From assembly GCA_017409215.1 (NCBI GenBank), contig JAFQTD010000016.1, forward strand, positions 5,128-69,127: 64,000 bases of DNA, written 5' to 3'. This stretch comes from Alphaproteobacteria bacterium (GTDB taxonomy: Bacteria; Pseudomonadota; Alphaproteobacteria; Rs-D84). Positions 28,449 through 64,000 of the stretch are shown here, in pieces. The notes under the pieces were generated by a model. The model did not search any database. It saw only the letters and a program-made list of their open reading frames with translations, and was not told where the DNA came from. Both the position numbers and the translations under genes were made by a program. Every line of letters starts with the position of its first letter. Positions within the stretch are counted from its first letter, which is position 1.

Positions 28449-28656
28449 TTATCTCTGGTCGGGGCGACAATGAGTAAATTTGCCAAGTGCCAAACGCAGG
28501 CAAATTGTCAGGAATGCCACGCAGATTTATCACATTTTGTGATAAAGCGAGTGAAACGTTCGAACCTGACAAAAGAATTTTGTCGTTTGAATCCGTACGT
28601 TCCAAACAGAAAATTAAAACCGCCGCAAATGCGACGGTTTGAATTTTCTGGTCGGG
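28449..28656. repeat. tRNA-3'-end-linked multi-hairpin unit bounded by two copies of the tRNA-Pro 3' end
   Basis: Inverted repeats aatttgcc/ggcaaatt, tttatcaca/tgtgataaa, gacaaaa/ttttgtc and aaaccg/cggttt. Confidence 0.6.
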
Positions 28657-28916
28657 ATTGTTTTATCAACGGTATTCTACATCCATTACAAATCCCTGAT
28701 ACACACGAAATTTCAGGGAATTCATCTCAAAAACCGCCCTTTCCCGCCACAAAAACACCCTTTCCCATAAAATTAACAGGGAATAATTTGATAAAAACAA
28801 GGAACAACCCAACAACATCAAGGAAACACAACGATAAAATCTTGCAAAATCAATGCACTTTGCTAGAATTACCGACAAAAGAACCATACGTTTATGCATA
28901 ACACAAGGGGCACTCT

Positions 28917-29801
28917 ATGAAAATAGTAGAACGACTTGTTTCATCTGATGGCAGCATTAAATATATTTTTCAAAACCATAATGGCTATTATTGCGAGGCC
29001 ATTTATTACAGATTGCCGCCAAAGAATAACACACCATATGAAAGATACCATATATGTATATCTTCTCAGTTTGGTTGCAAAATGAAATGTTCTTTTTGTG
29101 ACACAGGAAACCTAGGATTTTGTCACAACCTTTCTTCTGAAGAAATGTTAGAAGAAATAAGTCTAGTTCGTCAAGACATCATAAAATCGGGAAAAGAAAA
29201 AGCATCTACAAAATATAGTGCTGTAATTATGGGAATGGGCGAACCGTTAAACAATCTTGAAAACACAGCCAAATTTTGCACAACACTAACAACAACAGAT
29301 CCAAAGTTAGAAACGATCCCAATTTCATCGGTCGGAATTGTTTCACAAATACCAAAATTAGCCCAAATGCAAAATCAATTAAAAAACATTAAATTTTTTG
29401 TATCTTTGCATTCCCCATATGATGAACAACGCAACCAAATTATGCCAATAAATAAAAGATATAACATTTCGTCTTTATTATCAGCATGCCAACAGTATCA
29501 TTTAGATACCAACAGTAAAGTCACCTTAAGTTATATGTTAATGGAAGGCGTAAATGATACTGACAAACATTTAAGCGATTTGACAAAACTGATTAGCCCA
29601 GAACATTTTAAGGTTCAATTATTATTGTATAACAACACAACCAATTCAAACTTTATACGTCCAGCAATTGAAACCGCCAACTTATTCAATGAACATCTGA
29701 ACAAAAATGGCATCTCTTCTATAATAAGAGTAAGCAAAGGTCAAGACATTAGCGGTGGCTGTGGTCAATTAATCGCACTTCAGAAAAACAAACAAAAATA
29801 A
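28917..29801 (+). CDS. RlmN/Cfr-family radical SAM RNA methyltransferase lacking the N-terminal domain
   Basis: CISSQFGCKMKCSFCDTG; MGMGEPL; SLH; GCGQL. Confidence 0.85.
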   Translation: MKIVERLVSSDGSIKYIFQNHNGYYCEAIYYRLPPKNNTPYERYHICISSQFGCKMKCSFCDTGNLGFCHNLSSEEMLEEISLVRQDIIKSGKEKASTKYSAVIMGMGEPLNNLENTAKFCTTLTTTDPKLETIPISSVGIVSQIPKLAQMQNQLKNIKFFVSLHSPYDEQRNQIMPINKRYNISSLLSACQQYHLDTNSKVTLSYMLMEGVNDTDKHLSDLTKLISPEHFKVQLLLYNNTTNSNFIRPAIETANLFNEHLNKNGISSIIRVSKGQDISGGCGQLIALQKNKQK

Positions 29802-29824
29802 ATCGCCTAAAAGGCGATTTATTT
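29796..29824. terminator. Bidirectional terminator
   Basis: aaataaatcgcct-aaa-aggcgatttattt. Confidence 0.8.
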
Positions 29825-30519
29825 TATAATTTATTCAAATCAATACAGCCATCTGAGACATTACATTGAATTTTTTCACCTTTTCTGAACATATAATAAT
29901 CACGATCACCAATAACCCTCACTCTGTCTCCATCTATAATAATACTATCCTCCTCTGGTAACGCAATTACAGGATAAGTTTTTGACAGTTCTGTTAAATG
30001 CTCCGTAGCTAATTTTGTTTTCTCTTCATTCTTATTCGTGTAATGAGCAGCAATAGAAAAGCCACCTACAAAGTTATAACCATCCAAATCCAACAATTCT
30101 ACATTATTCTTATCCGAACTTGTTTTAATTGTCTGGCCAAATATAATAGCACCGGCACTTGACCCATAAACCACACCCCCGTTCTTTAAATACTCATTAA
30201 TATTATGTAAAAACTGTGTACTTTTCAAATCTCGCAACAATTTATAAGTATTACCGCCACTAATGTATATCATGCCAAAATCTGACAAATTTAGTCCTGC
30301 CAAATGCTCAACTGAATCAGCCATGACCAATTCAGTATAATTTATATTTGCTATTTCCGCAGACAACCACTTTTTTGAGTTTTCATATCCCGATTCATCT
30401 TTTTCTCTGGCCAAAGGAATACATAATATTGGTTTTGTGTTATCTATCATGGAATTTAATACAGCATAAATATTTTGTGTTTTATCACTACAACCACCAC
30501 CATTCAAAATCAATTTCAT
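29824..30519 (-). CDS. Peptidase S51 (PepE/class I GATase-like) family protein
   Basis: L.GGG; IPLA; YISGGNT..L; GSSAGA; HY. Confidence 0.85.
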   Translation of the reverse strand: MKLILNGGGCSDKTQNIYAVLNSMIDNTKPILCIPLAREKDESGYENSKKWLSAEIANINYTELVMADSVEHLAGLNLSDFGMIYISGGNTYKLLRDLKSTQFLHNINEYLKNGGVVYGSSAGAIIFGQTIKTSSDKNNVELLDLDGYNFVGGFSIAAHYTNKNEEKTKLATEHLTELSKTYPVIALPEEDSIIIDGDRVRVIGDRDYYMFRKGEKIQCNVSDGCIDLNKL

Positions 30520-30566
30520 AGACGTCTCCTTTGTTGTGTAATTATAAACACTTTTTATTCACTAAC

Positions 30567-32699
30567 TCAACCCTTTTGACGAGTTTTTATCACTCTAAAT
30601 TTATTATTTTCAAACAAAATCTCACACATCTCGATATCTTCATACTTTTCTTTGGATATACAGGCCTTCAAATTACTCATTGCCGCACTATGCATAATAA
30701 TAGCAATATTTTTACAAGTACTTTCAAGCACAACTTTATTCAGGAAAGCCAACAAGCGTTTGTTTAACTGATTTATACTTTCTCCACCGGGGATTGGCAT
30801 ATTATGATATCTAAACGCGCGTTGCACAGGTTTTTCTTTCAGAAAATCCGAAAATTTCATCCCCTGATATACCCCCATATTTAATCCACGCAACTCCCTA
30901 TGAAAAGATAACGGCTTGCCTATCTGCTTATTGGCCAATACAGCCGTATTTTTTGCTCGTTCCAGATCAGAGGCATATATTTCTTCTATGTTATTTGCTA
31001 TAAAATATCTAGCAATTTCATTTATCTGTTCTAAACCTTTGGTTGTAAATTCTACGCCATAATCATCCATTTGACCTTTTACAAGTCCAGCAGCATTCCA
31101 TGTAGTTTCCCCGTGTCTATAAATATATATTTTCTTGGTGGCAGATTTTGTAGAACTTTCAGATAATTTCTTCATGGTCATAACCCTTTTAGTAAGCCGT
31201 CTCTCTACATCTAAGCCTGTTTCTTGAACAATCTCACTAATGCTATTAATATTATTGCCAGACAATCTGTTATAATGACTGATAGCTCTGTCTAATTCCT
31301 CTGTCGACAATCTATAATGTCCTAATTTTACCAACTCCAAAAAATCTCTAAATGTTGTAGCATCATGATCTTTTTTAAGCTCTTGATGTAAAATTGAATA
31401 CCCAGACTTTTTATAATTTCTTTTTAATTCATTTACACTTAAATCTAATGCTTTTTGCAATTCTAACGGCAATCTTGATAAAGCAAATTTGTTTACCCGA
31501 TTTTCTTTTATATAATCCTGCAATACTCTTATAGTATAATAAAGTCTAGTCTTTTCTTCTTCAAACAACAAGGTTCCAGCGTAATCGCGCACACTGACCG
31601 ATTTCATTAATGTCACACTATGTGGAGCAATCTCATTAATTATACCTTCTCTATATGCCGCACCCTTTTCGATAAACGACAGCGTCAAAGGATCGGCAAG
31701 AGTTTTCTTATAAACAGTATGATAATCATCTTCATATATATTTAAAAGATTATCTTGTACACGATTTTGCCAAGTACACACATTTCCATTATATTCAATA
31801 ATCCAGTCCAGCCCCCTCTTACCATTAGAATTAAAAGCTATAGACGGAAAATTTGACTGACTTTGCACAGTATCCTTATTATATACATCAATTGTTCGCG
31901 CAATAGAAGATTTATCATGCAAATTTGGGCGCAAATTAGAATCAAAAACCCTTGAACACCCAACTATAACCGAATAACCTGTATCAAAATTAATTTTGAA
32001 TTGTTTTGGCATTATCTTGACAACATTATTATCATCAGATTTATTTACCCCAACATAATCGATAGAAAATCCCGGCTTAAACTCTCTTAGATATTGCTCT
32101 AATGCCGTATCGCCGTCAAAAGTTTTCAATTGCAGCGTAAAATTTTTATTATCCTTGTATTTTGTTTCAAATATGTTCAACAAGTTAATCAAAGGATAAT
32201 GTTTTAGCTTTATACTGTGATCGTTACTAACACTTAATCGAATTGACAACCTGGTTGGCGTTTCCCTTTTGTTTAAAGCGTTTTCTAGATCTTGCAAATA
32301 ACTTAAAGCCTTCTTTCCATTATAAGCCCATATTCCACTAGTAACCAAAATAATTCTATCCGCTTTTATCTTTTCTATACTTTTTAGTATAGCCTCGCGC
32401 TCCAAAAACGGTTCTCCTCCACCAGATATTTGCAAATAACCAACATTTGCATTGTTTGCAAACTCTATAAATTTGTCAACCCCTTCCGATGAAAACTTAT
32501 CTTCTATCCCGCCAGATTTAGTAGGCGAAGGGCTTGAAAAGAAACAAAAAGGACACCCTACACCACAATAAGAAGTAAAGAACACACATATCAGAGATTT
32601 TCCCGCATACAAGGAATCATGAGTATTTATTAACGTCTTTTGTTCTAAAATACGTTCACGATAAAACTGTGGATTATCAAAAATATTTATCTCTGCCAT
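30567..32699 (-). CDS. Radical SAM domain fused to C-terminal histidine phosphatase
   Basis: CGVGCPFC (CxxxCxxC) and SGGGEPFL; C-terminal YIYRHGETTWN, SDLERA, PGGES, H. Confidence 0.85.
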   Translation of the reverse strand: MAEINIFDNPQFYRERILEQKTLINTHDSLYAGKSLICVFFTSYCGVGCPFCFFSSPSPTKSGGIEDKFSSEGVDKFIEFANNANVGYLQISGGGEPFLEREAILKSIEKIKADRIILVTSGIWAYNGKKALSYLQDLENALNKRETPTRLSIRLSVSNDHSIKLKHYPLINLLNIFETKYKDNKNFTLQLKTFDGDTALEQYLREFKPGFSIDYVGVNKSDDNNVVKIMPKQFKINFDTGYSVIVGCSRVFDSNLRPNLHDKSSIARTIDVYNKDTVQSQSNFPSIAFNSNGKRGLDWIIEYNGNVCTWQNRVQDNLLNIYEDDYHTVYKKTLADPLTLSFIEKGAAYREGIINEIAPHSVTLMKSVSVRDYAGTLLFEEEKTRLYYTIRVLQDYIKENRVNKFALSRLPLELQKALDLSVNELKRNYKKSGYSILHQELKKDHDATTFRDFLELVKLGHYRLSTEELDRAISHYNRLSGNNINSISEIVQETGLDVERRLTKRVMTMKKLSESSTKSATKKIYIYRHGETTWNAAGLVKGQMDDYGVEFTTKGLEQINEIARYFIANNIEEIYASDLERAKNTAVLANKQIGKPLSFHRELRGLNMGVYQGMKFSDFLKEKPVQRAFRYHNMPIPGGESINQLNKRLLAFLNKVVLESTCKNIAIIMHSAAMSNLKACISKEKYEDIEMCEILFENNKFRVIKTRQKG

Positions 32700-33649
32700 G
32701 TTATCCTACTTTGATAAGAATTATTTTTGAATTCTAAATCGATATAACGCTTCATGTACTCCAATATTTGCTCATCAGACAAGTGTAATTTTTCTTTCCA
32801 ATATGCTAGTGCTTTATTATATTGTCTAAAGTTCCACATAATAGCCTTACGATGAGAACGAACATTTTCAACGTTTTCATTTTGTAGGGTGGCAACAGCA
32901 ACCATTGTATCCGCCAATTTTATCTTTTCTATCGAATCTATTTCAAATACATCTGCCATACGACAACTTTGTAACGAATTATGATTCCCATATTTACACA
33001 TAGAAAAAACAATATTGCTCATTCCCATATCTACTGCAAGTTTGCGACCCTGTGTTTCCATCATTACAACCGCTGCAACAGCTAAAAATTCACTCGTTCC
33101 CGCTTTCCTTACAGCGATATTAAAATCCCTACCATATATCCCCTGTTCATCCAGACCGTACGAATGAACGTATCTAGAACTTTTTGAGTCCAGTTCTCTA
33201 TGAACTCGTTTATCTACATTTTTTATGGCCTCTAATAAATCTGTATCATTAGAACTGATTCTTATCGACAAATCTTCTGGCTTAATAGCTAAATAATTAG
33301 GATTCATCAAATAATCAAACGTATCATGTACAACTTCTTCCATACAAGGCAGACTCAAAGTTCCCATTCCTCTGAAACACGTTCCAAATTTGCTCCATTC
33401 TGTGTTTTGCAAATTCTTTCTGCCATGCAATCTAAAACAATCTTGAATCAAAACATGCCCCGATGGCGATATAGAATAATCGAGAACCTTATCTTTAAGA
33501 ACAGATATTTTAGAACCAATAAAATCAACGCTCTTATCAACTCTCGAGGTTATGTTTACTGGCTTTTCTTTAACATACCCCTTGGCACCAAAGCAATCAA
33601 GAAAACCTTCTTCCACAAAATCTAGAAAATCACTATATTTATTAGACAT
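32687..33649 (-). CDS. Alanyl-tRNA synthetase catalytic-domain paralog (no editing domain)
   Basis: FLDCFGAKGY, DKSVDF, QDCFR, TCFRGMGTLS, VDMGM and LADTM align by eye to AlaRS FLDFF.SKGH, DPTLLF, QRCVR, TFFEMLGNFS, VDTGMGLER and IADH. Confidence 0.7.
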   Translation of the reverse strand: MSNKYSDFLDFVEEGFLDCFGAKGYVKEKPVNITSRVDKSVDFIGSKISVLKDKVLDYSISPSGHVLIQDCFRLHGRKNLQNTEWSKFGTCFRGMGTLSLPCMEEVVHDTFDYLMNPNYLAIKPEDLSIRISSNDTDLLEAIKNVDKRVHRELDSKSSRYVHSYGLDEQGIYGRDFNIAVRKAGTSEFLAVAAVVMMETQGRKLAVDMGMSNIVFSMCKYGNHNSLQSCRMADVFEIDSIEKIKLADTMVAVATLQNENVENVRSHRKAIMWNFRQYNKALAYWKEKLHLSDEQILEYMKRYIDLEFKNNSYQSRITWQR

Positions 33650-33937
33650 GTCGCCCCCTGTTTAAATTTCAATTTGACGAACATATTATTAGACCACAAG
33701 GTACCAGCTATTTTGTTTTTGTCAATATATTTTTATAAAAACCCCACAAAAAACAGTAAATTATTTCGCACCAAGAGAAAAAACACTCGTTAAAACACCT
33801 ATTCAAATACAAAAAAACATATACTTCTCTTATTTTGTCTTATTTCCAACAAAAAACAAATTTATAAACGCATTTTACTTGCATCGTAGGTATATTTTGA
33901 CACAATTAGCATAACATAACTCATTTAGGATAAAAAC

Positions 33938-36900
33938 ATGCCAAAAAATAAAACAAACAGTATAAAAAAACCATATTTTATTACAGATAGCGAAAAATCT
34001 TTTAAACCAAATTCTAGAAGCATAATAGACCTAAACAAAGAAACAGAAGATCTATTAAATGCTTCTATATACTCTAATGCCATCAAAAAAGCCATTGAAA
34101 ACGCCCCTATCGACAACGGAACCTTTATCATAGGGATTTTCGGAGAATGGGGAATTGGCAAATCCACAATTATCAAAAATATTAAAGAAGAGCTAGAGTC
34201 GCAAGCTAAGCGAAAGAAATGCTATAAATTTATTATTTATGATGCATGGAAATTTGTAAAAGACAGTTTCAGAAGATCTTTTTTATTATACTTGGTTGAT
34301 GCTTTACTCTTGAACAAAACGCCTTATATGGAGAAAATCTACCAAAACAAAACCGAAGAAACTAATATAACTGTTAAATATAACTCAAAAAAATTCTGGT
34401 ATTTTACAGTTTTTCCTTGGATATTAAGTTTAGTTTCTATTGTTTGTATATGGGCATACGGGACGGGAAATGATACCTTAAAAATAATTTCAAGTATTAT
34501 ATTTCCTTTTATTTCATTGATTATAAATTCTCTCGGAAAAATTTTTGATGAATTAAAAACAACAAAACAAACGCCGGCAATATTCTCCGCTGAGCAGTTT
34601 ACAGAATGTTTTGCTGAAATATTGGCACAAAGCCTAAAAAAAACTAACTTTATAAAAAGAATTTGTAATTGGGTCAACGGCACTCCAACTTATGATAAAC
34701 TAATTATAGTAATAGACAATATTGACAGATGTAGTGCAGATACAACTTACGAACTCCTAAGTACCATCAAAACGTTTTTAATAAATCACGATAATCTAAT
34801 TTTAGTCATTCCGGTTGACGAAGTCGCCTTGTGCGAGCATTTACAATCCAGATTTGATAACAAACCAGATAGAGCAAAAGAATTTCTCCGCAAAATATTT
34901 AATTTAGAAGTTCGTATAAAGCCATTAGACAGCGTTGAATTATATGAATTTACTAACAAAATAAATCAAGACTATGATCTTGATTTCTCACCAGATGCCA
35001 TAGATATTATATCAAAAGAATATGCAACCAATCCAAGAAGGATCATTCAATTTTTTAATAACGCCCAAACCGAATGGGATATTGTCACACAAAGAATAAA
35101 AAACTTTTCCCCCAAAGACACAATATTAGCCAGAAATACGATGTGCAAATTACTGATTATTCGTGAAGAATGGCCATTTTACTATGAGCAAATAAGAAAA
35201 GATCCTAAAAAACTATTATCTGGTAAGTATACAAACAAACCAAATGAACAAAATAACCTTGCGCTAGATACATTTTTAAGGTCAACAGAATTCTATCCAA
35301 TACTAACAGATGAATTTAAATTGAACAGAATAATATCTAATAATAACATGTTTGATGCTTTGCCTATACAAACATTAGAAGACTTAAAGTCATTCGACAT
35401 TCCAAAACTTACCGCATTTATAAAAGCATCTAGTGAAAATGAAACAAAAACTTTCAAATATTTAGAAACGCAAATAAAAAATGCTATAAAACGTAATATT
35501 ACTGGTACCACAGCCACATTATTCAAATTTATATTGCAAATAAATAGAGCTATAGGCGGACTTTCAGAACAAAATAATATACGATTACAAACTATCCTAA
35601 ATGAACATGTTGGCCCCATCGTTTCTACCATACTAGAAAAAACACCAATAGAACACTTTGCTGACGAATTAATAGAATATATAAACGCACAAAATCAAAG
35701 TAAGCGCACATATTTATTCCACGAGATAATGAATAACTGTATTATTCCTACTATAAAAATCCCCCAAACATACGAAAAATACACCCCAACAAATACAGAT
35801 TTGCTATATGCAAAACTAATAACCAGTATCACAGACAAAAAATTATTCGATAAATATAAAAAACATTTCTGCCTATGGAAACAATATATATCAGACGACA
35901 TTGTCAATATTAACAACATAGCAGCAACAGACTTACAATACTTTATTACAAACGATTTTCAAGAAGAGCTCATAAACGGAATAAAATTGACCGAAAACGA
36001 CGAAACTACGCACTTAGATACTATAATACATTTACTAAACAACTATAGACAAAATAAATCATTGATACAAAACATCTTTAGCAAACTGAATACAATATAC
36101 CCAAACTATACTGTGGGTCAAAAAAGTAAAAGTATAAAGTTTCTTAAAAACGTATTAGAATTACTGAAAGTAATAAAACCGCAAAACATAGGTGACGAAC
36201 TTCATTCCTTAATAAAAAAACTCTTATATTCCAGAACATATGGACAAACCATCGTCACACACGAAACATATGCAGATAAAGACGAATATATAAAGATGAT
36301 AGACATTTTATGCAAACTACTTAATTTTTCATTGGACAATCGATCTTCATATAATGCACAAACCGAACTAAATACATTATTAATCTCCTATTTGGAGCGA
36401 CTTATAAATCGAAATATAGAATTGCAAACAGATTTACTTCACTCCATAAAAACAAATATTACAAACCCTCAAGCTTCTATATATAAGCTTGCTAATTTAA
36501 TATTTGGGAAAAAAATTTATAACAACGATTATTGCTCTATCATGAAAGACATTGTAGTATGGCACTATTCCAACCGAGACATAAACTCTCCAGAATATTG
36601 GTGTATTGCTGATAACGCATTAGCTACAGAAATACATAATTTGTTATCAGAACTAAAAACATCTAACACGACTCAAAAGACTTTGTTTCAAGATTTGATA
36701 GACTATTTAAGTAAAAAAAGAAAAAACTGCATCGATTCTGTACTACAAACAATAAACGACTGCGCTATTATTGCCAACTTACCATCCCAATCAAAGATAA
36801 TAGCAATGCAACACATATATACAAATTTGCACGAATACGAATCCAACACAATGATGTTAAAACTAGTGGCCCAAAACGCCGATGTTGAAACTATCAAAAA

Positions 36901-37030: not shown

Positions 37031-37044
37031 AGAGTATAGCTGCA

Positions 37045-39641: not shown

Positions 39642-39670
39642 TTGAATAAGAACATATTCTATGATAGAAT
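39642..39670 (+). promoter_or_regulatory. Sigma70-type promoter of the structured leader
   Basis: TTGAAT-17bp-TAGAAT. Confidence 0.7.
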
Positions 39671-40359: not shown

Positions 40360-40372
40360 CTAAAGGATTACT

Positions 40373-55473: not shown

Positions 55474-55500
55474 AATAAATACTGGGTAAAATCTCGGTAT

Positions 55501-56139
55501 TTATTTTGGCATATGTTTATGTATACATGCGTTATGCAAATCACTAATCAAATTCTTGCCAGTATAAGATTTTATAAACCGTTTAAATTGGTCTATTTGT
55601 TTAATAAAATCATCACATGATATAAAATATGAATAATCATGTTTAGAAAAAGCATCAAATACAATCATATCTATTTCTTTGTTGTGCTTTTTTATCCACT
55701 GATATACTGTTTCAAAATCTATATATAAAAACATATGATTTGTGGCCGCGCCGTGTATTTCGCGCATTGATAGAAAACCACTAAAAATCCTGGTTTTATC
55801 TGCTAGTTTTATTTGTGGAGCAATATTTACATTTTTCATATATAAAAAACTGTCATTTTTACAATCTGGCAATTTCATAATACTCGTATCGTTTTTACCC
55901 GGCGGACAAATATAAATAGGTATCAGTATTTTTGATCGCAACAACGTCGCTATGAAATACGCCAAACTTTCATCATCTTTGAACACGTTATATTCTGCTA
56001 ATGCACTGGCCAATGTCCCATTAAAATAATCGGTATTATTTTCTTGGTGAATAATACAGTAATCAAATTCATATTCGAAATCTTTAAAATGGCTCTCGTC
56101 CAATACATATTCTGTTAAAGTTTTTCGTATGTTTGTCAT
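55501..56139 (-). CDS. Hypothetical protein, possibly SseB-like
   Basis: ILIP...F.S..EI pattern; weak similarity only. Confidence 0.55.
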   Translation of the reverse strand: MTNIRKTLTEYVLDESHFKDFEYEFDYCIIHQENNTDYFNGTLASALAEYNVFKDDESLAYFIATLLRSKILIPIYICPPGKNDTSIMKLPDCKNDSFLYMKNVNIAPQIKLADKTRIFSGFLSMREIHGAATNHMFLYIDFETVYQWIKKHNKEIDMIVFDAFSKHDYSYFISCDDFIKQIDQFKRFIKSYTGKNLISDLHNACIHKHMPK

Positions 56140-56140
56140 A

Positions 56141-56638
56141 TTATTTTTCCAAATTTATGCCACATTCTGTATAGCACTTTTTCCAATCAAATCGCGATGA
56201 TTTATATTTTTTGTTTAATTTTGCATTTTCTTCTTTGGTAATCCATACGGTTTTCAAATTATTCAAAACATATTTAACACTTTTATCATCATCCATAAAA
56301 GCATGAAATAATTCAGATAACGGCACACAGTGTTCCAATATTAAATCTTTCAATTTCGGGAAATCTTTTTGATTTGTGCGTTTTTTGCCGACCAATAAAT
56401 TATGCAAATCCCCATTTATACCAGATTTGCACCAAATATTTTGCGCCGATACCGATATAAAATCTGCCGGTCTTGATTCAGAAATCACATACAATATATT
56501 GCGAAATGATAATTTTACAATTTTCTTTGCGTTATCACTTGCTTTACGATATGTATCACGCAGATTATTCAATAGTAAATCTACATCTTTATCAGTAAAT
56601 TTATTCGCCGGTTTGCTTATTGTTATTTGTGGTTTCAT
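56141..56638 (-). CDS. Hypothetical protein with HNH-like motif
   Basis: LEHCVP...WITKEEN..LN. Confidence 0.6.
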   Translation of the reverse strand: MKPQITISKPANKFTDKDVDLLLNNLRDTYRKASDNAKKIVKLSFRNILYVISESRPADFISVSAQNIWCKSGINGDLHNLLVGKKRTNQKDFPKLKDLILEHCVPLSELFHAFMDDDKSVKYVLNNLKTVWITKEENAKLNKKYKSSRFDWKKCYTECGINLEK

Positions 56639-57113
56639 GGTTCTCTGCCGCTTGTTTTTCTTGCCATTTTTTATATTCTGGATTTGGAATCTGGGATTCT
56701 ATCATCTTTAACTTTCGAATAGTTTTCTTTGTGCCTATCGTATTGTAATAAGTATAAGTTCCATCTAATACCATACAATATGCCCCAAATGTAACCGTAT
56801 ATCCATCATACAATTTTTTTGATTCTGTTTTCCAGTCTTTTTCGCCTATAACCTGTCGCATATCGGTTGCAAAAACTTCGCCACCAAACATCTGTTGCCG
56901 TCGTGCCTTGCATGAACGTGCCACATCTGTGTCGCCATCTGCCGGATGACAATAATATAATTGAATCAAAGAATACTTGTCATTCACTTGAAATACTTTT
57001 AATTCATGACTTGGAAAGCAATCTGGATTGCGTATGGTTTTTGGAGGAACCGGTTGTGTTGTTAAACCAACACAAGAACACAATAACAAACCTAATAAAA
57101 TTACTTTCTTCAT
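56601..57113 (-). CDS. Lipoprotein
   Basis: Lipobox LCSC. Confidence 0.7.
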   Translation of the reverse strand: MKKVILLGLLLCSCVGLTTQPVPPKTIRNPDCFPSHELKVFQVNDKYSLIQLYYCHPADGDTDVARSCKARRQQMFGGEVFATDMRQVIGEKDWKTESKKLYDGYTVTFGAYCMVLDGTYTYYNTIGTKKTIRKLKMIESQIPNPEYKKWQEKQAAENHETTNNNKQTGE

Positions 57114-57115
57114 AT

Positions 57116-57793
57116 TTAATCCTTTTTGTTTTTGGGTGGAATTTCTATAAACAATGATTTGAATTGTCCGTATTTATCGCCAGTATCGCAAAAATCTTGC
57201 CATTGAAAATTATAGGCATTTTGCATAAACAAATCTGGTTTATCTTTAAGATGTTTGGAATTGGTGTCATTTTTTACATTCCACTTATGCCATCCAGACA
57301 TTTTTTCGCCTTCAGTTGTCCTGAATGCATATGCCATAGAATTTGGGTTGCTTTTTGCACACCAAAACGACTTGTTGTTCGAGATAAAAATGCATACGCC
57401 TGATTTTGCGTATCCTTTATCAATTAACCATTCAATGCGATTTATATCTGCCCATACATGGTAACAATTATCATCGTTTCCCTTGTGATCTGCCAACAGG
57501 TCTGATACAGGTATTTTTGTATTTTCATAAAGTTTTTCTGATTTTATCGGTCTGGTTTTATATTTCAATTCTATGGGGTAAAAATCGCCGTCTTTGATGA
57601 CCATTATATCTATGTGAATAATGCGTTGTTCGCCTGGCTTTTTAATTGGAAATTCCAAAATTATTTGTGCAGCATTATTGAATATCTTGTGTAATTCAAT
57701 TGCTAATGAATGTTGAAAATCTGCTTCCGAGACAAAGAACCTTTGTCTACTTATGCTAGAAAATGCTTCTTTAATTCCGCTGATTACATCCAT
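57116..57793 (-). CDS. PD-(D/E)XK-like nuclease-fold protein
   Basis: SEADFQ..LA; E.P; IDI; IELKY. Confidence 0.65.
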   Translation of the reverse strand: MDVISGIKEAFSSISRQRFFVSEADFQHSLAIELHKIFNNAAQIILEFPIKKPGEQRIIHIDIMVIKDGDFYPIELKYKTRPIKSEKLYENTKIPVSDLLADHKGNDDNCYHVWADINRIEWLIDKGYAKSGVCIFISNNKSFWCAKSNPNSMAYAFRTTEGEKMSGWHKWNVKNDTNSKHLKDKPDLFMQNAYNFQWQDFCDTGDKYGQFKSLFIEIPPKNKKD

Positions 57794-58033
57794 CTTTATC
57801 CCCGCATAAAATGTTGACCGCCAACTAAGAATCGGCGGCCGGGGAGTTCCTAATCAGTTTATCATTGATTCCGTGGCTTTCGGGTTGCCCCTATTGTATG
57901 GCGCACGACTCCCCGACCATAACGTCAGGGACATTACGGTGCAAAAAGCACCGAAACATCAGTAATAACGATGCTTTCGCACCGGATAAACGGGCTAGGA
58001 CAGCCCCGAACCCAACTCTCATTGGATTCACCG
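57794..58033 (-). ncRNA. Structured c4/CI-like antisense RNA plus attenuator leader (candidate)
   Basis: GC-rich hairpins including GAAA and GCAA tetraloops; loop TCCTA and GTTTATC are complementary to downstream GATAAAC-TGAT-TAGGA; GGTCGGGGAGT/ACTCCCCGGCC stem. Confidence 0.7.
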
Positions 58034-58035
58034 AA

Positions 58036-58064
58036 AACATACCTTAAAACAATATAAAAATCAA
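58036..58064 (-). promoter_or_regulatory. Sigma70-type promoter of the structured leader
   Basis: TTGATT-17bp-TATGTT on the minus strand. Confidence 0.55.
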
Positions 58065-58082
58065 GTTATTATAACAACGAAT

Positions 58083-59525
58083 CTAGCATTTTGCATATTT
58101 AATGTATTTATAAGAAGAATGTGTTTGAATAAACGCGTTGATGTGTTTATTAATTATTTCCTTAGGTATAGAATATATATCGTTCATTACGCCATTTATA
58201 AATGCACCGGCTAATATACCATAAACATTTTGCAATGCTAATTCATCATTTGCGATTGCATAATATTTACCGTTATTTTTCTTATGCGATTTTGGGTGAA
58301 CTATTACGTTGCGTATTTCGCACAAAGCGTTACCCAGATTTTTATCTTGTTTTTGGGAATATTTTAGTATGCGTTTTATTTTTGTTTTCCATGATGTTGA
58401 TAAATTTTCTGAAACAAAACCATCTATATCATTGTTTTTAGGTTTCCCTCGTAAGTTTTGTAAAGTTTCTATATAAGAAATCAACATTACATAATCTTTT
58501 TGACCAATTATCGACTGATGCTCGTTCAACATATCTTCAATTCCTGTAATCAAATTATGCCAACCAGGTTCGTCATAGACACTTAACCACCTGTTAATTG
58601 ATGTATTTAACAAATTATTATCTTTATTTATTACAAAATCCCTTATGGTTATTGGCATAAAAACATGTGATAATTTTTTATGATTATGCACAGAAGAATA
58701 AGCAAAATCCCTGCAAAGCATAGGATATGCTTTGTGATATATTTTGTCATTTCTATCGTGTTTCACAACATCAATCCAGCTAAAATTTATACCTATCTTA
58801 CAATCTACTAAAAATTCTAAAAACAACCGCAACTTATGTTCAAGCATTCTATAAATAGAGAATTTGTTATAACCTGACTTTATATGAATAGCAATATTCG
58901 TGTGGAGACGTTTTAATAAATTATATTTGTTTTCATCTAAGAATGGTTGAATATGCTTTTTAAATGAATTTATAATATTATTAGATTCTGCAGAAAAAGA
59001 ACAAATGATATCATCAAAATCATCAGCGGAATAAATGGTATGAGCTGTTGCATTCACTATTTTAAGCGAAATTTGTGTTTTACCTATTACAACTGGTATT
59101 TGTGCAAATTTCACCATAGAACTAACGTTTTTATTTGTAGACAAAAATTGATAGAAATTGTCATCATAGTCTATATATAAGCCACTTATTATAAAATTTT
59201 TTAGTAAATCACCAAAAACAATTGCTCTAGCAGATCCTGTAACAAATTCTGAAAAGACGAGATGCATACTCATTCCAGAACGTTGTAAAAACACTTCAAA
59301 TAATGTAATCGGTACGGTTTCTTCTCCATGACGAATTATACCATGCATTATACGTAAAGATTTATTAACAAGTGGTTTTGCATCTGTATTAAACACCGAG
59401 ATTTGAATCCCTGTTTCTGGAGAATAACTCAATTTGCCAGAAAATTCCTTACCCGGTTTATTTGGCATCCAAAAAGTGCCTATCCATTCATAATTTTTAT
59501 GATGATCTAAATCCAAAGTCGACAT
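58083..59525 (-). CDS. ApeA-like HEPN domain protein
   Basis: N-terminal G.FW.P......SG.LSY.P..GI resembles the ApeA NTD; HEPN RNVIVH (Rx4H). Confidence 0.75.
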   Translation of the reverse strand: MSTLDLDHHKNYEWIGTFWMPNKPGKEFSGKLSYSPETGIQISVFNTDAKPLVNKSLRIMHGIIRHGEETVPITLFEVFLQRSGMSMHLVFSEFVTGSARAIVFGDLLKNFIISGLYIDYDDNFYQFLSTNKNVSSMVKFAQIPVVIGKTQISLKIVNATAHTIYSADDFDDIICSFSAESNNIINSFKKHIQPFLDENKYNLLKRLHTNIAIHIKSGYNKFSIYRMLEHKLRLFLEFLVDCKIGINFSWIDVVKHDRNDKIYHKAYPMLCRDFAYSSVHNHKKLSHVFMPITIRDFVINKDNNLLNTSINRWLSVYDEPGWHNLITGIEDMLNEHQSIIGQKDYVMLISYIETLQNLRGKPKNNDIDGFVSENLSTSWKTKIKRILKYSQKQDKNLGNALCEIRNVIVHPKSHKKNNGKYYAIANDELALQNVYGILAGAFINGVMNDIYSIPKEIINKHINAFIQTHSSYKYIKYAKC

Positions 59526-59536
59526 ATTTTTAATGA

Positions 59537-60079
59537 TTATTTATCAGTTGGAACCGGTAACCCAAATTTTTGTAATGGAATATATTCAAAATAATACGAA
59601 CAACCGACAGATACGATGTAATCTAATACATCTTGATAGCATGGCTGTTTGAACCAGTCACTTAACAGGTAGATATATTCGACTTCCATGTTCAGTTGTG
59701 CCAACAATTTTTTATATTGCTTTTTCTTAAAATCGCATGTTTGTAATTTTTCGTCTACAGAACCGGCAACACGTTGAAACTTACATTCAATAACAAAAAA
59801 CGTATTGTTTATAACAACATAGATAGAATCATCTGGCAAAAGTTTTTTAGATAATATGGATTTCCAATCGATACCACGATATTCTAAGAATTTATATAAT
59901 GCCGTTTTCTTAAAGATAGATGCTACTTCTTCGCCTTTGTATAAAACAGAAACCCAGCCACGTTTATCATCAATGCAACTGTATCCTGGTTGGGAACACA
60001 AAAAAGTGCGTAAATCGGTTTTCCCTTCAAAAACTAAACCCGTTTTGGTATTTGCACCACCAATTCCATTCGCTTTCAT
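59537..60079 (-). CDS. Putative type II restriction endonuclease (PD-(D/E)XK)
   Basis: LLPDD...IECKFQ..AGSVDEKLQT; coupled to two MTase genes. Confidence 0.7.
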   Translation of the reverse strand: MKANGIGGANTKTGLVFEGKTDLRTFLCSQPGYSCIDDKRGWVSVLYKGEEVASIFKKTALYKFLEYRGIDWKSILSKKLLPDDSIYVVINNTFFVIECKFQRVAGSVDEKLQTCDFKKKQYKKLLAQLNMEVEYIYLLSDWFKQPCYQDVLDYIVSVGCSYYFEYIPLQKFGLPVPTDK

Positions 60080-60861
60080 TTTTTATCCTTTTTTTCAGAT
60101 ACATCATAGAGTCTTTTTTCCGCCAGGTCAACAAATTGTGGCTCTTGGTCTATACCCACAAATAGACGACCATGCTTTAATGCTGCAACGCCTGTGGTAC
60201 CGCTGCCCATAAACGGATCCAAAATTAAGTCACCAGGGTTTGTTGATGCCAAAATAATGCGTTCCAATAAATCAACCGGTTTTTGCGTTGGATGTTTGCC
60301 GAACTTCTTTTCTTCCTTGGTGGGTGTGCCAATAGCCCAAACACTTCGCATTTGGCAACCCGGCTTTTTAATGAAGTCCTTTGGAAAAACACCGTTTTTC
60401 ATCGCTTCATAATTAAAAGTGTGTTTAGCCTTTTTGTTTTTGCGCGCCCATAGCAAAGTTTCGTGACTGGCGGTAAAATACCGGCAGGACATATTAGGAC
60501 TGGCGTTTGGCTTAAACCAAGTAATGTCGTTCAAAATATGAAAACCGAGTAATTGCATGGCAAAACCGCACGAATATATACTGTGATATGTACCACTAAC
60601 CCACAATGTGCCGTTTGGTTTCAAGATACGATGACAGGCACAGAGCCATTTTTTATGAAATTCAAAATCATCACTCAGACCATGTGATTTATCCCAATCA
60701 CCTTTGTTCACGGATACAACACAGCCATTTTGGCATGTGATGCCACCATTGGAAAGCAGGTACGGCGGATCCGCAAAAATCATATCAAATGTATTTTCTG
60801 GAAGTTCGAGCAACTTTTCAAGGCAATCTGCACAATAAAGACGATACTGCTTCTTAGTCAT
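60076..60861 (-). CDS. Beta-class N6/N4 DNA methyltransferase (DpnA-like)
   Basis: FADPPY.LSNGG; HPTQKP; DPFMGSGTT. Confidence 0.9.
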   Translation of the reverse strand: MTKKQYRLYCADCLEKLLELPENTFDMIFADPPYLLSNGGITCQNGCVVSVNKGDWDKSHGLSDDFEFHKKWLCACHRILKPNGTLWVSGTYHSIYSCGFAMQLLGFHILNDITWFKPNASPNMSCRYFTASHETLLWARKNKKAKHTFNYEAMKNGVFPKDFIKKPGCQMRSVWAIGTPTKEEKKFGKHPTQKPVDLLERIILASTNPGDLILDPFMGSGTTGVAALKHGRLFVGIDQEPQFVDLAEKRLYDVSEKKDKK

Positions 60862-61786
60862 AATTTGTAATCAATAATTCACGAATTGCATCACGACCAT
60901 CAGCCTTGGAATTTATAAGACGTTTAGCCAAAATACGGTTAATTTTATAATCTTTGTACAAATCATCAAAGAACGGGTCTTCAATATAATTTGTTGGATC
61001 TGAATTGCTTAACATCTGTAAAGCTCCTGTTTGATGACATTTATCAAAGACCTGTTTCAAACGTTCTTGTTCTGCGTCATCAAAATCACCGACAGCATAA
61101 GAATTAAAAGATGATGTTTCACGAATTGGACGATATGGAGGGTCGTAATAAATGAATGTATCAGCTTTTACATAATCTGGTGTAGCACCAAAGTCTGCCT
61201 GCATAATAGTAGCAATTTGCAAAGCTTCAGACACGTTGCGCAAGTTTTCTTCATCCAAAATACGCGGGTTTGTATATTTGCCCATCGGAACATTGAATTT
61301 GTTTTTACTGTTTACGCGGAACAATCCATTAAAGCATGTCCGATTCAAGAATATCGTTAGGGCAGCGCGGCGAACAAAACTTGTACGGTATACATTGGCA
61401 TCTATGTTCTTATCAAGGTCATTATATTCGTCGCGCCTTGCATAATAATATGCCTTTGTGTCATCTGTATGTCTGTATTCAGTTTGAATCTTGGTCAGCT
61501 CAACAATCAAACTTTCAACATCGCATTTTATAACGTTGTAAAGAATCACCAGTTCCGGATTGATATCAAACAAGAAGGCTTCTTGGATATTATACCGATT
61601 ATATATATCAAAGAATACAGCACCGCCACCAACAAATGGTTCAATATAGCGTTTAATGCCGTTCATTTTTAATTTTAATGGGAGTTTTTGTTCGATTTGT
61701 TCCAACAATTGCCCTTTGCCGCCGGCCCACTTCAAAACAGGGCGGCATTCTGTATAATCTGGCAATCTGACTGGTATTGCTATCAA
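60854..61786 (-). CDS. Dam/DpnM-like adenine DNA methyltransferase
   Basis: LKWAGGK; EPFVGGG; LNRTCFNGL.RVN; DPPY. Confidence 0.92.
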   Translation of the reverse strand: MIAIPVRLPDYTECRPVLKWAGGKGQLLEQIEQKLPLKLKMNGIKRYIEPFVGGGAVFFDIYNRYNIQEAFLFDINPELVILYNVIKCDVESLIVELTKIQTEYRHTDDTKAYYYARRDEYNDLDKNIDANVYRTSFVRRAALTIFLNRTCFNGLFRVNSKNKFNVPMGKYTNPRILDEENLRNVSEALQIATIMQADFGATPDYVKADTFIYYDPPYRPIRETSSFNSYAVGDFDDAEQERLKQVFDKCHQTGALQMLSNSDPTNYIEDPFFDDLYKDYKINRILAKRLINSKADGRDAIRELLITNYD

Positions 61787-61848
61787 AATTCATCCTTTCT
61801 TTACCGTTATATTAGAAGAAAATAATAGATAAAATCAAGGTCTTTATT

Positions 61849-61884
61849 AACTTGACTTTCGGCGACTTTAGAGCGGTAATTGCG
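61849..61884 (+). promoter_or_regulatory. Island-conserved promoter motif, copy 2
   Basis: AACTTGACT-N14-AGCGGTAATTGC. Confidence 0.65.
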
Positions 61885-61904
61885 TGACGCTAAAAGGAGT
61901 TGAT

Positions 61905-62330
61905 ATGTCATATAAAGACAAACTACCAAAGACGATGGAAGTGCTAAAAGCTTTGCCGTTTGATGAACGGGCACGATTATGGGATAAATACTCACAACAC
62001 CCGTTCAAACGGCAAATGCGGTCACTTTGGTATTATATTCAATGCGACAGGTTAAATCTTCAAATTGAACATAAATATTTGGTAAAAATTCGTAAATATA
62101 AGGATAATCCAGAACAATGTTTAGACCATGCATGTCCAAATAAGTATAACTTTGTTCCTGGCACAATTTTAACCAGATATTTCAAGGGCATAAAACACAC
62201 TATCTTAGTCAATGATGACGGCAGTTTTTCTTATAACGGTGATAAATATTCAACATTATCGGCCGTTGCAACAAAGATAGCAGGCATGAAACTATCTGGG
62301 CCAAAATTTTTTAATCTAACCATAAAATGA
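61905..62330 (+). CDS. DUF2924 domain protein
   Basis: Homologous to 41868..42353 (LWYYIQC; PGT.L.R; TLSAVA..I.G...SGP.FF). Confidence 0.85.
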   Translation: MSYKDKLPKTMEVLKALPFDERARLWDKYSQHPFKRQMRSLWYYIQCDRLNLQIEHKYLVKIRKYKDNPEQCLDHACPNKYNFVPGTILTRYFKGIKHTILVNDDGSFSYNGDKYSTLSAVATKIAGMKLSGPKFFNLTIK

Positions 62331-63015
62331 CATTTTTGATGTATGGTATTAATTCTTCCATAAGACTTGATTGTTTGAATTCTACACCCGTATGGCTTTC
62401 CGCATTATTACCGCTACCGTCATCATAAATTTCTACAGTTGTAGAGGTATGAACTTTTATAAAGTAAAGCCCAGTGCGTAGTAATGCGTATCGTATAGTA
62501 TTTATATCTGCAGGAATTTTTAGTTGTTTTATAAAATTTTCTCTGTCTTCTCGCCATAATTTGTGATTTTCACACTCGTATATCTCTGTAACGCCATTTT
62601 TAACAACCACTGATGTTTCATCAGAATGTTTAGGTTGAGGGTTTAAAATGGGCCAGAGATCATAAGCGATAACTTTTATTTCTTCTTCTGTTAATCCTTC
62701 TAAAATTTGAGCAAATTTTAAAAAGTTTTGAGCAGTTAATTTATTATTGTTATGCAAACCTGCGATCATGGCACATAGTAGGCGTAAATTATTTTTAGCA
62801 ATTCCTTCCATAGCATCTTTCTGCAATCTGTAACTTATCCCCACTAAATCATCACTATCAACATTAGAAAAATCTCCTTGTCTTATTTCTGATAAAATAA
62901 CCTCCCTTAACATTGTTATTTTCTTCTTTTTATACTTATTCCAAAAAAATTCAACCCCCCTTGCTAAAGGATTATTTGTAAGTTTATCTATTGTGCTTAG
63001 AAAGTTCATAATCAC
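62311..63015 (-). CDS. Hypothetical protein inserted between DUF2924 and the recombinase
   Basis: 234-aa ORF with AGGAG RBS. Confidence 0.65.
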   Translation of the reverse strand: MIMNFLSTIDKLTNNPLARGVEFFWNKYKKKKITMLREVILSEIRQGDFSNVDSDDLVGISYRLQKDAMEGIAKNNLRLLCAMIAGLHNNNKLTAQNFLKFAQILEGLTEEEIKVIAYDLWPILNPQPKHSDETSVVVKNGVTEIYECENHKLWREDRENFIKQLKIPADINTIRYALLRTGLYFIKVHTSTTVEIYDDGSGNNAESHTGVEFKQSSLMEELIPYIKNVILWLD

Positions 63016-63063
63016 TCCTTTTGTATCAAATATACGTTTTTTTACGCTTTTTTCAATCTAATT

Positions 63064-63099
63064 AACTTGACTAATCACTTACTACAAGCACTAATTGCA
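63064..63099 (+). promoter_or_regulatory. Island-conserved promoter motif, copy 3
   Basis: AACTTGACT-N14-AGCACTAATTGC. Confidence 0.65.
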
Positions 63100-63118
63100 A
63101 GCAATATAGGAGTTAAAT

Positions 63119-64000
63119 ATGACGATTAAATGTGCGGTTTATACGCGTAAGTCAACTGAACACGGACTTGAACAAGAGTTTAATTCTCTGCAAAACCAAG
63201 AAGAGTCGTGCAAGGCCTATATTGCATCACAATCGTTTAATGGTTGGCAATATTATAAAACTTACAGTGATGCGGCGATATCTGGCGGAACCATGGAACG
63301 CCCCGCTTTAAAACAAATGCTAGATGATATGGCACATGGGTTAGTAAATACTGTGGTAGTGTATAAGGTTGATCGCTTATCACGTTCAATCTTGGATTTC
63401 CACAATATGATGAAATATTTTGAAAAATACGGTGCAAACTTCGTATCTATTACCCAGTCATTTGACACCAGCACATCTATGGGAAAACTAACACTTAATA
63501 TGCTGTTATCATTCGCCCAATTTGAACGTGAAGTATCAAGTGAACGCGTTCGGGATAAAATCCGTGCATCAAAAGCCAAAGGTCTATGGATGGGTGGTGC
63601 GCCACGGCTGGGTTATGACCTGATAAACAAAAAATTGGTAGTAAACCCAACCGAAGCAGAACAAGTACGACATTTGTTTGAAAAATATCTGGAACTGCAA
63701 TCTGTGAATGATTTAACTGAATATGCAAAACAAAATGGTATATTTGGTAAACAATGGGAGACAGCAAAACGACAAATACGTGGTGGTAATCCGATTAGTA
63801 AAATGAGTATGCATCGTATATTGCGGGATAAAGTTTACATCGGTCAAATCGAAAACAAAAAAGAAGGTACTTTTGCCAAAGGTGAACACGAACTGATTAT
63901 ATCAAACGATTTGTTTAATCGTGTCCAAGTTGCGTTGGCTAATAACACAAACAACAAATCCCAAAGCACACATGCGCCGAATATATTGACCGGAAAATTA
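63119..64000 (+). CDS. Large serine recombinase, truncated by the window end
   Basis: MTIKCAVYTRKSTEHGLEQEFNSL...; close paralog of 42299..43873. Confidence 0.93.
   Translation, partial: MTIKCAVYTRKSTEHGLEQEFNSLQNQEESCKAYIASQSFNGWQYYKTYSDAAISGGTMERPALKQMLDDMAHGLVNTVVVYKVDRLSRSILDFHNMMKYFEKYGANFVSITQSFDTSTSMGKLTLNMLLSFAQFEREVSSERVRDKIRASKAKGLWMGGAPRLGYDLINKKLVVNPTEAEQVRHLFEKYLELQSVNDLTEYAKQNGIFGKQWETAKRQIRGGNPISKMSMHRILRDKVYIGQIENKKEGTFAKGEHELIISNDLFNRVQVALANNTNNKSQSTHAPNILTGKL

Follow-up and report, generated by a model that had tools for sequence, protein, structure and literature searches.

Capsid-less islands at tRNA genes with a putative phage-type packaging module and variable defence cargo: a candidate family of satellite-like elements in Candidatus Enterousia and beyond

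How might a chromosomal island that carries phage packaging genes and no capsid genes move between bacteria? The question is raised by a 64,000-nucleotide stretch (here "the window"; C10:5128-69127 of the source assembly) that contains two insertions at tRNA genes: island 1 (28657-44048, 15,392 bp) at tRNA-Pro, and island 2 (50354-66066, 15.7 kb), which ends against host genes 2 kb past the window. Both carry a large serine recombinase (LSR), a DUF2924 gene, a fusion of a ParB-N/Srx domain to an N6/N4 DNA methyltransferase (ParB-MTase) and a DUF5681 gene, and island 2 adds a large terminase, TerL. Coordinates of the islands are given in window numbering; the contig extends 4.8 kb past the window end. 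The source assembly (genome G000 in our numbering of relatives) comprises 1.13 Mb in 37 contigs at 95.7% completeness, and the genomes of all relatives searched are 0.5-1.1 Mb. We report that islands built on ParB-MTase, DUF5681 and TerL form a widespread, apparently undescribed family, and we lean, by a modest balance of probability, towards reading both islands as members of a phage-derived family of helper-dependent, satellite-like elements that package themselves with their own terminase into borrowed capsids.

A previous sequence-only reading had picked out the four shared genes, the additional TerL of island 2 and the complete difference in cargo, and had seen no capsid, portal, tail or replication genes. 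Scans of the main open reading frames (ORFs) between 26 and 64 kb with Pfam, PHROGs, NCBIfam and PADLOC bore out each of these points. In island 2 the order is ParB-MTase (52408-53673, +) and DUF5681 (53651-54031, +; 126 aa, the small-terminase candidate), both recognised by Pfam, PHROGs and NCBIfam, then TerL (54028-55473, +; 481 aa; phrog_38 at E 1.5e-101 and TIGR01630 above its cut-off, with no Pfam match), and further on DUF2924 (61884-62330, +; Pfam and PHROGs), a 539-aa LSR (63119-64738, +, crossing the window end; PF00239 and PF07508) and the tRNA, an arrangement that we call layout A. Island 1 has layout B: its DUF2924 (41868-42353, +; Pfam, PHROGs and NCBIfam) and 524-aa LSR (42299-43873, +; PF00239 and PF07508), the end of the former overlapping the start of the latter, are divergent from ParB-MTase (38018-39343, -; PF01555, phrog_498 and phrog_620) and DUF5681 (37045-38025, -; 326 aa; Pfam and tblastn). 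Identity between the paralogues of the two islands is 57% for the LSR, 51% for ParB-MTase, 48% for DUF2924 and 39% over 74 aa for DUF5681, and no cargo gene is common to both. Neither island contains a capsid, portal, tail or replication family recognised by Pfam or PHROGs. The remainder of island 2, named earlier as the place where structural genes might reveal an ordinary prophage, holds no such genes past 64000; the order there is the LSR end, a 226-aa gene, an HNH endonuclease, tRNA-Ser(tga), Lgt, Bax1-I and tRNA-Ala.

The earlier label of a terminase-module island does not fit island 1, which has no terminase at present. Only the first ~92 aa of its DUF5681 protein match family members, and the rest found no match in the relatives' loci examined, in Pfam or in PHROGs. 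No TerL follows this gene, and a convergent gene for a KAP-family NTPase stands at that position. Three relatives with layout B (G092, G125 and G144) retain TerL. Judged by its gene content, island 1 is best read as a family member that lost TerL; island 2 is an intact member.

Comparison with relatives placed the borders of both islands at tRNA 3' ends, as had been predicted, and showed related elements facing tRNA genes too. One relative, G004, has the same neighbourhood, from arginyl-tRNA synthetase (ArgRS) to tRNA-Pro, as the source genome without island 1. Relative to this empty site, the island is flanked by 10-bp direct repeats (TCTGGTCGGG) at 28647-28656 and 44049-44058, and the tRNA scan and empty-site comparison identify the 3' end of tRNA-Pro(tgg) (44051-44127, -) as its attachment site. 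Two left ends had been suggested. The one at 28647 stands, its repeat flanking the insertion; the one at 28449 does not, the 19-bp repeat at 28449-28467 being the head of a tRNA-Pro trailer unit (28449-28656, ~200 bp) that lies outside island 1, predates it, and starts and ends with copies of the tRNA-Pro 3' end. At the empty site the unit measures ~187 bp between copies of the 14 bases that end tRNA-Pro; G004 has two units in tandem, abutting the tRNA, and the source genome a single one.

For island 2, an exact 11-mer direct-repeat search found no border, and cross-species comparison supplied it. The left end at 50354 is conserved beside unrelated flanks in G063, G064 and G067, and the 7-bp motif TGGCGGA is common to this end and to the 3' end of tRNA-Ser(tga) (66067-66156), which faces the island. 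The Rho-to-Lgt neighbourhood differs in G004 and G006, and its synteny yielded no empty site. The first ~135 bp of the island (50354-50487), which begin with TGGCGGA, are 87-95% identical in G064 and G067 and precede different cargo in each; this segment is a candidate for an att arm or for a packaging or regulatory site. At least part of the stretch is contained in 20 public runs from 10 studies, in all cases as assembled contigs, and none of the runs is a particle preparation. In one DNA run and in one RNA-library run, contigs pass directly from 50286/7 to 66066, omitting the 15,778-15,779 bases between, with a short side of only 20-23 letters; this is a weak hint of an empty site at best.

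Relatives of TerL were found in 39 of 121 species genomes of Candidatus Enterousia, including 32 of the 87 high-quality genomes (E <= 1e-10), and the LSR in 45 of the 121 (E <= 1e-20). Twenty-four genomes hold 26 near-full-length, stop-free TerL genes, about 20 of which have an LSR on the same contig, 1.6-14.3 kb away. The order ParB-MTase, DUF5681, TerL recurred in all 14 loci read gene by gene, although G014 has no ORF called on that strand where DUF5681 would lie. DUF2924 and the LSR are placed either downstream of these genes on the same strand (layout A) or upstream and divergent (layout B). In nine relatives' loci, as in both islands, the LSR end faces a tRNA gene, for Ser (tga, gga or cga), Pro or Tyr, often with one variable gene in between. 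Isolated C-terminal fragments of the LSR (the last ~80-180 residues) are also common in the genus, one of them at C9:36981-37464 of the source genome.

None of the proteins of the 14 relatives' loci matched a capsid, portal, connector or tail family in PHROGs or Pfam. Two controls show that such genes are found where they exist. In a prophage of G016 (L024), PHROGs detects portal/adaptor, major head, tail and internal virion proteins, which come after a distant phrog_38 TerL. In the source genome itself, a decayed prophage on contig 18 (C18 ~38-50 kb; L003:11969-20000, L004:1-2113) still yields matches to TerS, TerL, portal and tail pieces. This remnant, in which no major capsid gene was seen, runs from ParB-MTase through TerS (phrog_57), TerL (phrog_15), a cytosine methyltransferase and portal to a tape-measure-like fragment, two tail proteins and a lysin-like fragment; it is a true case of prophage decay and serves here for contrast.

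Comparison of coding sequences supports the view that TerL is kept intact under purifying selection: the ratio of nonsynonymous to synonymous divergence (dN/dS) is 0.08-0.16 for TerL, 0.08-0.25 for ParB-MTase, 0.08-0.18 for DUF5681 and 0.08-0.40 for a four-gene operon downstream of TerL in island 2. A 5.8-kb block (52309-58108) is 96-97% identical in G034, G064, G067 and G090, and in G063 identity over 50350-61845 is 93.5%, against 70-83% for host genes in the same comparisons. The source genome and G090 illustrate the disparity. Their ArgRS proteins are 68% identical with synonymous sites saturated (pS 0.79), whereas their TerLs are 97.7% identical with dS 0.12. A near-identical packaging block in genomes whose host genes are saturated therefore shows recent crossing between species. 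Between the LSRs of the same two genomes identity is only 61%, and tRNA-Tyr is the site of the G090 element: at that locus (L032; C1:62000-81999) the packaging block, 97% identical, adjoins ArgRS, and a different recombinase stands beside tRNA-Tyr/tRNA-Gly. Such divergent recombinases at different tRNAs therefore point to modular exchange of integration and packaging parts.

The backbone proteins were compared and modelled. Across 11 family members at 41-75% identity, TerL has invariant motifs, which we take to be the ATPase Walker A/B motifs and the acidic residues of a C-terminal RNase-H-like nuclease. A search at E <= 0.001 brought up 141 relatives of DUF5681, each either nameless or annotated as DUF5681 itself; in the literature, the name turns up in the virion proteome listed for a Salmonella phage. 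The predicted structure of the protein (pLDDT 83.8) combines a basic, disordered arm, which bears an invariant motif rich in Gly, Pro and Arg, with a small helix-hairpin domain and a helix of 50 residues. When TerL and DUF5681 were modelled together from our own alignments, the complex scored 0.71 against 0.00 for the best of three controls; the score mark is one reached by 116 of 157 solved complexes and by 2 of 215 mismatched pairs, and the runs agree in at least 78% of contacts with partner pLDDT of at least 69. The predicted contact joins the C-terminal helix of DUF5681 (residues 101-120) to TerL residues 2-38. Small terminases bind the TerL N-terminus, and the model lends support to, and does not prove, such binding by DUF5681. 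DUF2924 (model pLDDT 73.5) has a C-terminal part that weakly matches the RAMA-type DNA-binding domain of MPND and the C-terminus of CcrM (E 0.1-0.2); a weak Pfam RAMA match agrees with these structural matches and is a lead only. DUF2924 might thus be a DNA-binding recombination helper, perhaps a directionality factor. Since ParB-MTase stands directly before TerS/TerL in the contig-18 remnant and, by the available accounts, in phage WO, its link to packaging modules is general.

The family extends far beyond the genus. Cultured phages such as Roseobacter phages CRP-901/902 and Pelagibacter phage HTVC027P have TerLs 31-33% identical to that of island 2. The closest record, MT839917.1 (5,365 bp, "Bacteriophage sp.", from human faeces), consists of LSR, DUF2924, ParB-MTase, DUF5681 and TerL only and lacks a terminal repeat. 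In IMG/VR a single-sequence TerL scan found nothing and an alignment-based scan gave matches; the best 11 contigs (36-41% identity, 4-7.5 kb) include ten with DUF5681 and nine with both ParB-MTase and DUF5681 beside TerL, seven of the nine also having DUF2924 and an LSR. A survey of contigs from one genome per species produced 80 loci, each viewed over 8-10 kb on either side. DUF5681 stood upstream of TerL, in the place expected of a small terminase, in 73, and the whole ParB-MTase/DUF5681/TerL triad was present in 64; an LSR lay within the examined stretch in 40, accompanied by DUF2924 in 37, in layout A (26), layout B (11) or another arrangement (3). These loci come from Alphaproteobacteria, Burkholderiaceae, Gammaproteobacteria, Acidobacteriota, Elusimicrobia, Nitrospirales, Vulcanimicrobiota, Melainabacteria, Gracilibacteria, Bdellovibrionales and others. 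A tRNA or tmRNA lies within ~3 kb, its 3' end facing the LSR, in 16 of the 40 LSR loci, and 13 of these are tRNA-Ser. The module thus recurs in the genus and in other phyla, and the family proposed by the sequence-only reading is upheld by comparison of relatives; the satellite lifestyle attached to it is a step that we infer.

Virion genes were sought on both sides of TerL in this wider set. Capsid, portal or connector PHROGs (E <= 1e-8) matched none of 102 ORFs of at least 100 aa downstream of TerL in 13 loci, where one ORF matches "minor tail protein with lysin activity", and none of 89 ORFs of at least 110 aa upstream in 14 loci, where the one "head and packaging" match is to the filamentous-phage secretin family. 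The flanking genes are instead methyltransferases, restriction enzymes, RtcB, toxin-antitoxin genes, helicases and transposases, and in compact forms less than 1 kb separates TerL from DUF2924. In a FastTree phylogeny of 169 TerLs, the 94 with DUF5681 upstream group with eight others, at least two of which are truncated by a contig end, on one side of a split with support 96; the 67 TerLs lacking DUF5681, including that of the G016 phage, fall on the other. The DUF5681 label needs six changes on this tree, compared with ~55 in shuffles.

The genes around this backbone vary. Three stretches differ from one species to the next: one from the left end to ParB-MTase, one from TerL or the four-gene operon to DUF2924, and one separating the LSR from the tRNA. 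In island 2, hot spot 1 holds an OLD-family ATPase-TOPRIM nuclease resembling Gabija GajA/Old (50521-52248, -; Pfam, PADLOC), a slot occupied by other genes in G034, G064 and G067. Hot spot 2 holds genes for an ApeA-like protein (58083-59525), a PD-(D/E)xK protein (59537-60079), an N4/N6 methyltransferase (60076-60861) and a Dam methyltransferase (60854-61786), all on the minus strand and identified by Pfam, PADLOC and NCBIfam; a VbhA/Fic pair takes their place in the same three relatives. PADLOC matches in the source genome are the OLD/Gabija-like protein, ApeA, methyltransferases and a KAP/QatA-like NTPase. Elsewhere in the genus the cargo includes SIR2 (pAgo-associated) and VbhA/Fic (G034); a CBASS cyclase with SAVED-HNH, UzuA and type I restriction-modification (G033); type I restriction-modification (G029); IetA/IetS (G092); HamB (G144); a reverse transcriptase, a PtuA-like ATPase and PDC-S01 (G009); MkoA-like and SoFic proteins (G125); PDC-M46 (G113); beta/capP (G011); and PDC-M30A (G090). 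Gene order and family matches thus support variable defence genes at fixed hot spots, as the earlier reading had anticipated.

Taken together, these data suggest a route of transfer, in which we infer excision, packaging, a helper, and the roles of DUF5681, DUF2924 and the methyltransferase. Probably helped by DUF2924, the LSR would insert the circular element into the terminal bases of a tRNA gene and excise it again. ParB-MTase, DUF5681 as small terminase, and TerL would form the element's own packaging machine, which would recognise and cut the element's DNA and pump it into capsids encoded elsewhere, and the methyltransferase would probably shield that DNA from restriction in a new host by marking it. 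In two or three hot spots the element would gather anti-phage systems that pay the host for carriage. Island 1, its TerL lost, would at best be mobilisable in trans.

Several observations weigh against this scheme. No helper phage was identified. No primase, helicase or Rep was recognised in either island by Pfam, PHROGs or NCBIfam, and known satellites usually replicate before packaging. DUF5681 has no recognisable small-terminase family or fold in PHROGs or fold searches, where the best Foldseek match had E 0.18 and VIA-align returned only coiled-coil rows at Z ~6. Contigs of four runs laid on the whole of island 2 contained no circular junction. TerL is fragmented or interrupted by stops in G003, G007, G013, G022, G036 and G088, and the LSR is broken in G063 and G064; with decay this frequent, and island 1 lacking TerL, many copies are therefore dead. 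The surveys of other phyla used ORFs of at least 100 aa and PHROGs alone, and the TerL tree is a FastTree phylogeny with a midpoint root only.

Among other explanations, the one that fares best makes the triad a DNA-targeting or defence system, in which the methylase marks self and the terminase-like ATPase-nuclease cuts or translocates DNA of foreign or phage origin, or else sabotages the packaging of phages; the LSR island would then move otherwise, for example by transformation, general transduction or mobilisation. We regard this as unlikely, with some substance behind it. The triad always lies amid defence genes, a methylase beside a nuclease-ATPase recalls restriction-modification, no replication or helper-sensing genes were seen in the islands, and excerpts of PMC9618062 describe satellite packaging genes that can double as interference. 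On the other hand, the triad is an invariant backbone around which known defence systems vary, and across phyla it keeps to two fixed arrangements with a single recombinase/DUF2924 family. TerL and DUF5681, like DUF2924 and the LSR, match no PADLOC model; ParB-MTase does match PADLOC type II methyltransferase models. In the contig-18 remnant, moreover, ParB-MTase, small terminase, TerL and portal follow one another in a packaging context, and the available portions of the phage WO accounts give a ParB-MTase-to-terminase packaging order likewise.

If packaging is accepted, the capsids might come from the host rather than from an infecting phage. The portal of the G016 phage, used as a query, matched one ~410-aa gene in 108 of the 121 genus genomes, which in the source genome lies on contig 18 (140.0-141.2 kb). 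It belongs to a podovirus-like set (C18:131.3-141.5 kb; L200:1378-11446) comprising a T7-type capsid, tail-tube-like proteins, the portal and a split terminase. The set encodes a major capsid protein (homologue PDB 9eg4, E 3.7e-24) and a tail-tube B-like protein. The terminase consists of a 209-aa N-terminal ATPase piece (T7 gp19, PDB 4bij, E 3e-22) and a 292-aa C-terminal piece whose profile matches the nuclease half of a TerL alignment at 58% probability, and three opposite-strand genes, one DnaB-like helicase by its translation, separate the two. Of 61 relatives, 53 have the capsid gene, at 64-93% identity, and they span 10 of the order's 12 genera. The set may be a domesticated podovirus-like particle system resembling a gene-transfer agent (GTA). 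That the islands exploit these host-encoded capsids through a TerS-like/TerL pair of T7-like class, as a "satellite of a gene-transfer agent", strikes us as quite unlikely; were it true, they would move themselves and their defence cargo between species without an infecting phage.

Another view takes the islands as ordinary remnants of WO-like temperate phages that lost their structural genes and are in slow decay, TerL being kept by chance or only briefly. The backbone genes are indeed those that flank attP in phage WO, to go by partial accounts, and in phage AcaML1; island 1 has lost TerL, and several species have TerL fragments and broken LSRs. We nevertheless judge this very unlikely: many phyla, and within the genus at least 24 species, have the same capsid-less set with no structural remnants, and a real remnant in the source genome still has portal and tail pieces. 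The dN/dS of ~0.1, the near-identical blocks in species whose host genes are saturated, and the separate clade formed by the TerLs also speak against it. Finally, that the elements are complete small viruses or self-transmissible elements with unrecognised structural or transfer genes is scarcely credible, since the conserved ORFs that could supply them (the four-gene operon and the 226- and 234-aa genes, none with a family) are not family-wide, only five genes being so, compact forms leave less than 1 kb between TerL and DUF2924, and no relaxase, coupling protein or capsid-like family was matched in Pfam or PHROGs.

Other features of the islands complete the picture. The four-gene operon of island 2 (55501-57793, -; 225, 170, 165 and 212 aa) lies within the 96-97% conserved block and is confined to the island 2 clade; it has no Pfam, PHROGs or PADLOC family, and the protein Atlas gives leads only, PD-(D/E)xK-like and SseB-like, for its 225- and 212-aa products. 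Short RNA-library contigs span the region from ParB-MTase to this operon, with DNA carry-over a possible source. The 234-aa gene (62311-63015, -) is inserted between DUF2924 and the LSR, and assembled run contigs from another sample show it replaced in another strain. Two regulatory features that had been ascribed to both islands found no support. A conserved promoter finds no counterpart in shared non-coding DNA by blastn, and an RNA immunity switch reduces to a sub-threshold sRNA-Xcc1-like match in island 2 only, upstream of the operon (57830-57917, -; RF02221, 36.7 bits, below the gathering score of 53, E 0.0054); island 1 gave no RNA-family match at E <= 0.1. Upstream of ParB-MTase, the source genome, G034 and G011 share a promoter-like stretch and a perfect hairpin before the ribosome-binding site. 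The corresponding regions of island 1 and of other clades do not align with those of the island 2 clade, and a consensus promoter scan of 52200-52450 was uninformative.

The cargo of island 1 begins with an RlmN/Cfr-like radical-SAM protein (28917-29801, +), which lacks the first ~70 residues, starting at about position 70 of the family model, and is only 28-31% identical to two other RlmN-like genes of the source genome. A TAA codon is an in-frame stop between 28416-28901 and this gene; an alternative genetic code was ruled out, ORF statistics fitting the standard code. There follow an S51 peptidase (29824-30519, -), a radical-SAM/histidine-phosphatase fusion (30567-32699, -), these three assigned by Pfam and NCBIfam, and a 320-aa protein to which Pfam and NCBIfam scans assigned no function (32687-33649, -). 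The KAP-family P-loop NTPase (33938-37030, +; 1030 aa; PF07693, E 5.5e-22; PADLOC QatA, E 1e-13) is weakly QatA/PifA-like, and a T5orf172/GIY-YIG-like protein (40373-41053, +), a PDC-S57 candidate defence gene, lies between ParB-MTase and DUF2924.

Outside both islands, 44226-49080 holds Rho and three other host genes. A 365-aa protein (45654-46751, -) is one of a repeat-rich family, probably of variable surface proteins, that matches more than 20 places in the source genome, spread over at least 12 contigs and often at contig ends. Between Rho and island 2 lie a class I methyltransferase of 270 aa (49250-50062) and an 80-aa ORF, and the 67-bp stretch immediately left of island 2 (50287-50353) contains a T-arm-like tRNA fragment and a hairpin; 49250-50353 may represent a small cassette in its own right, or else a scar left by an earlier element. 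Elsewhere in the window, convergent tRNA-Lys(ttt) and tRNA-Arg(tct) genes occupy a stretch of lower G+C (19173-19496).

If the islands are packaged, they would make up a large class of phage satellites that spans phyla and probably escapes current satellite finders, the probable reason being that they lack primase, AlpA and capsid markers and bring both terminase subunits instead. Packaging would also explain how CBASS, Hachiman, retron/DRT-type reverse transcriptases, SIR2/pAgo-associated genes, restriction-modification and other defence systems move between gut bacteria with tiny genomes and no conjugation machinery. It would account, too, for tRNA-Ser loci being hot spots of defence, and would give a function to the orphan families DUF5681 and DUF2924. 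The backbone of five genes provides a simple searchable marker, and the LSR/att pairs are candidate tools for genome engineering. Full-text literature searches, supplements excluded, returned no description of a capsid-less, LSR-borne island with TerL and a TerS-like gene.

Among known elements, phage-inducible chromosomal islands (PICIs), capsid-forming PICIs (cf-PICIs) and PICI-like elements (PLEs) resemble the islands as site-specific insertions of 10-20 kb with incomplete virion genes, one or more packaging genes of their own and defence cargo. Known PICIs carry a small terminase (or Ppi/Rpp) and use the TerL of the helper, and the PICI core used by SatelliteFinder-type tools reportedly consists of an integrase, an AlpA-type regulator, a primase/replicase and a packaging gene. 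The present islands differ in having a TerS-like gene with a full TerL, and no primase/Rep or AlpA-type regulator recognised by Pfam, PHROGs or NCBIfam. In cf-PICIs, TerS and TerL are accompanied by capsid, portal and head-tail connector genes; in the islands TerL is present and nothing matches a capsid, portal or connector. Of the generic traits of satellites, an integrase of their own, defined att borders and an incomplete set of virion genes are found in the islands, and PLEs also use a large serine recombinase, according to excerpts of PMC9618062.

Tycheposons of Prochlorococcus and marine virion-encapsidated integrative mobile elements (VEIMEs) share with the islands integration at tRNA 3' ends with partial tRNA copies, cargo and, in some cases, LSRs, and tRNA-Ser(tga) is among the tycheposon sites given in the available parts of bioRxiv 10.1101/2020.12.28.424599 and PMC9618062. 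The same portions describe small-terminase or capsid genes in these elements, and not TerL, and those of the former source count a tyrosine recombinase in 910 of 937 tycheposons, with replication genes carried. The islands differ in having TerL, and an LSR with no replication gene (primase, helicase or polymerase) recognised by Pfam or PHROGs. The same backbone genes occur in temperate phages. Wolbachia phage WO, as outlined in sections of PMC10299305 and PMC11376236, has at one end a ParB_N_Srx-methylase, a hypothetical protein, an ankyrin protein and the terminase, and at the other DUF2924 beside a recombinase; in Acidithiobacillus phage AcaML1 the recombinase and a DUF2924 homologue are likewise adjacent. 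These are phages of 59-65 kb with portal, head, tail and lysis genes after the terminase, whereas no such genes occur in the islands, which measure 15 kb or less. Temperate phages similar to WO and AcaML1 are the likely ancestry of the islands.

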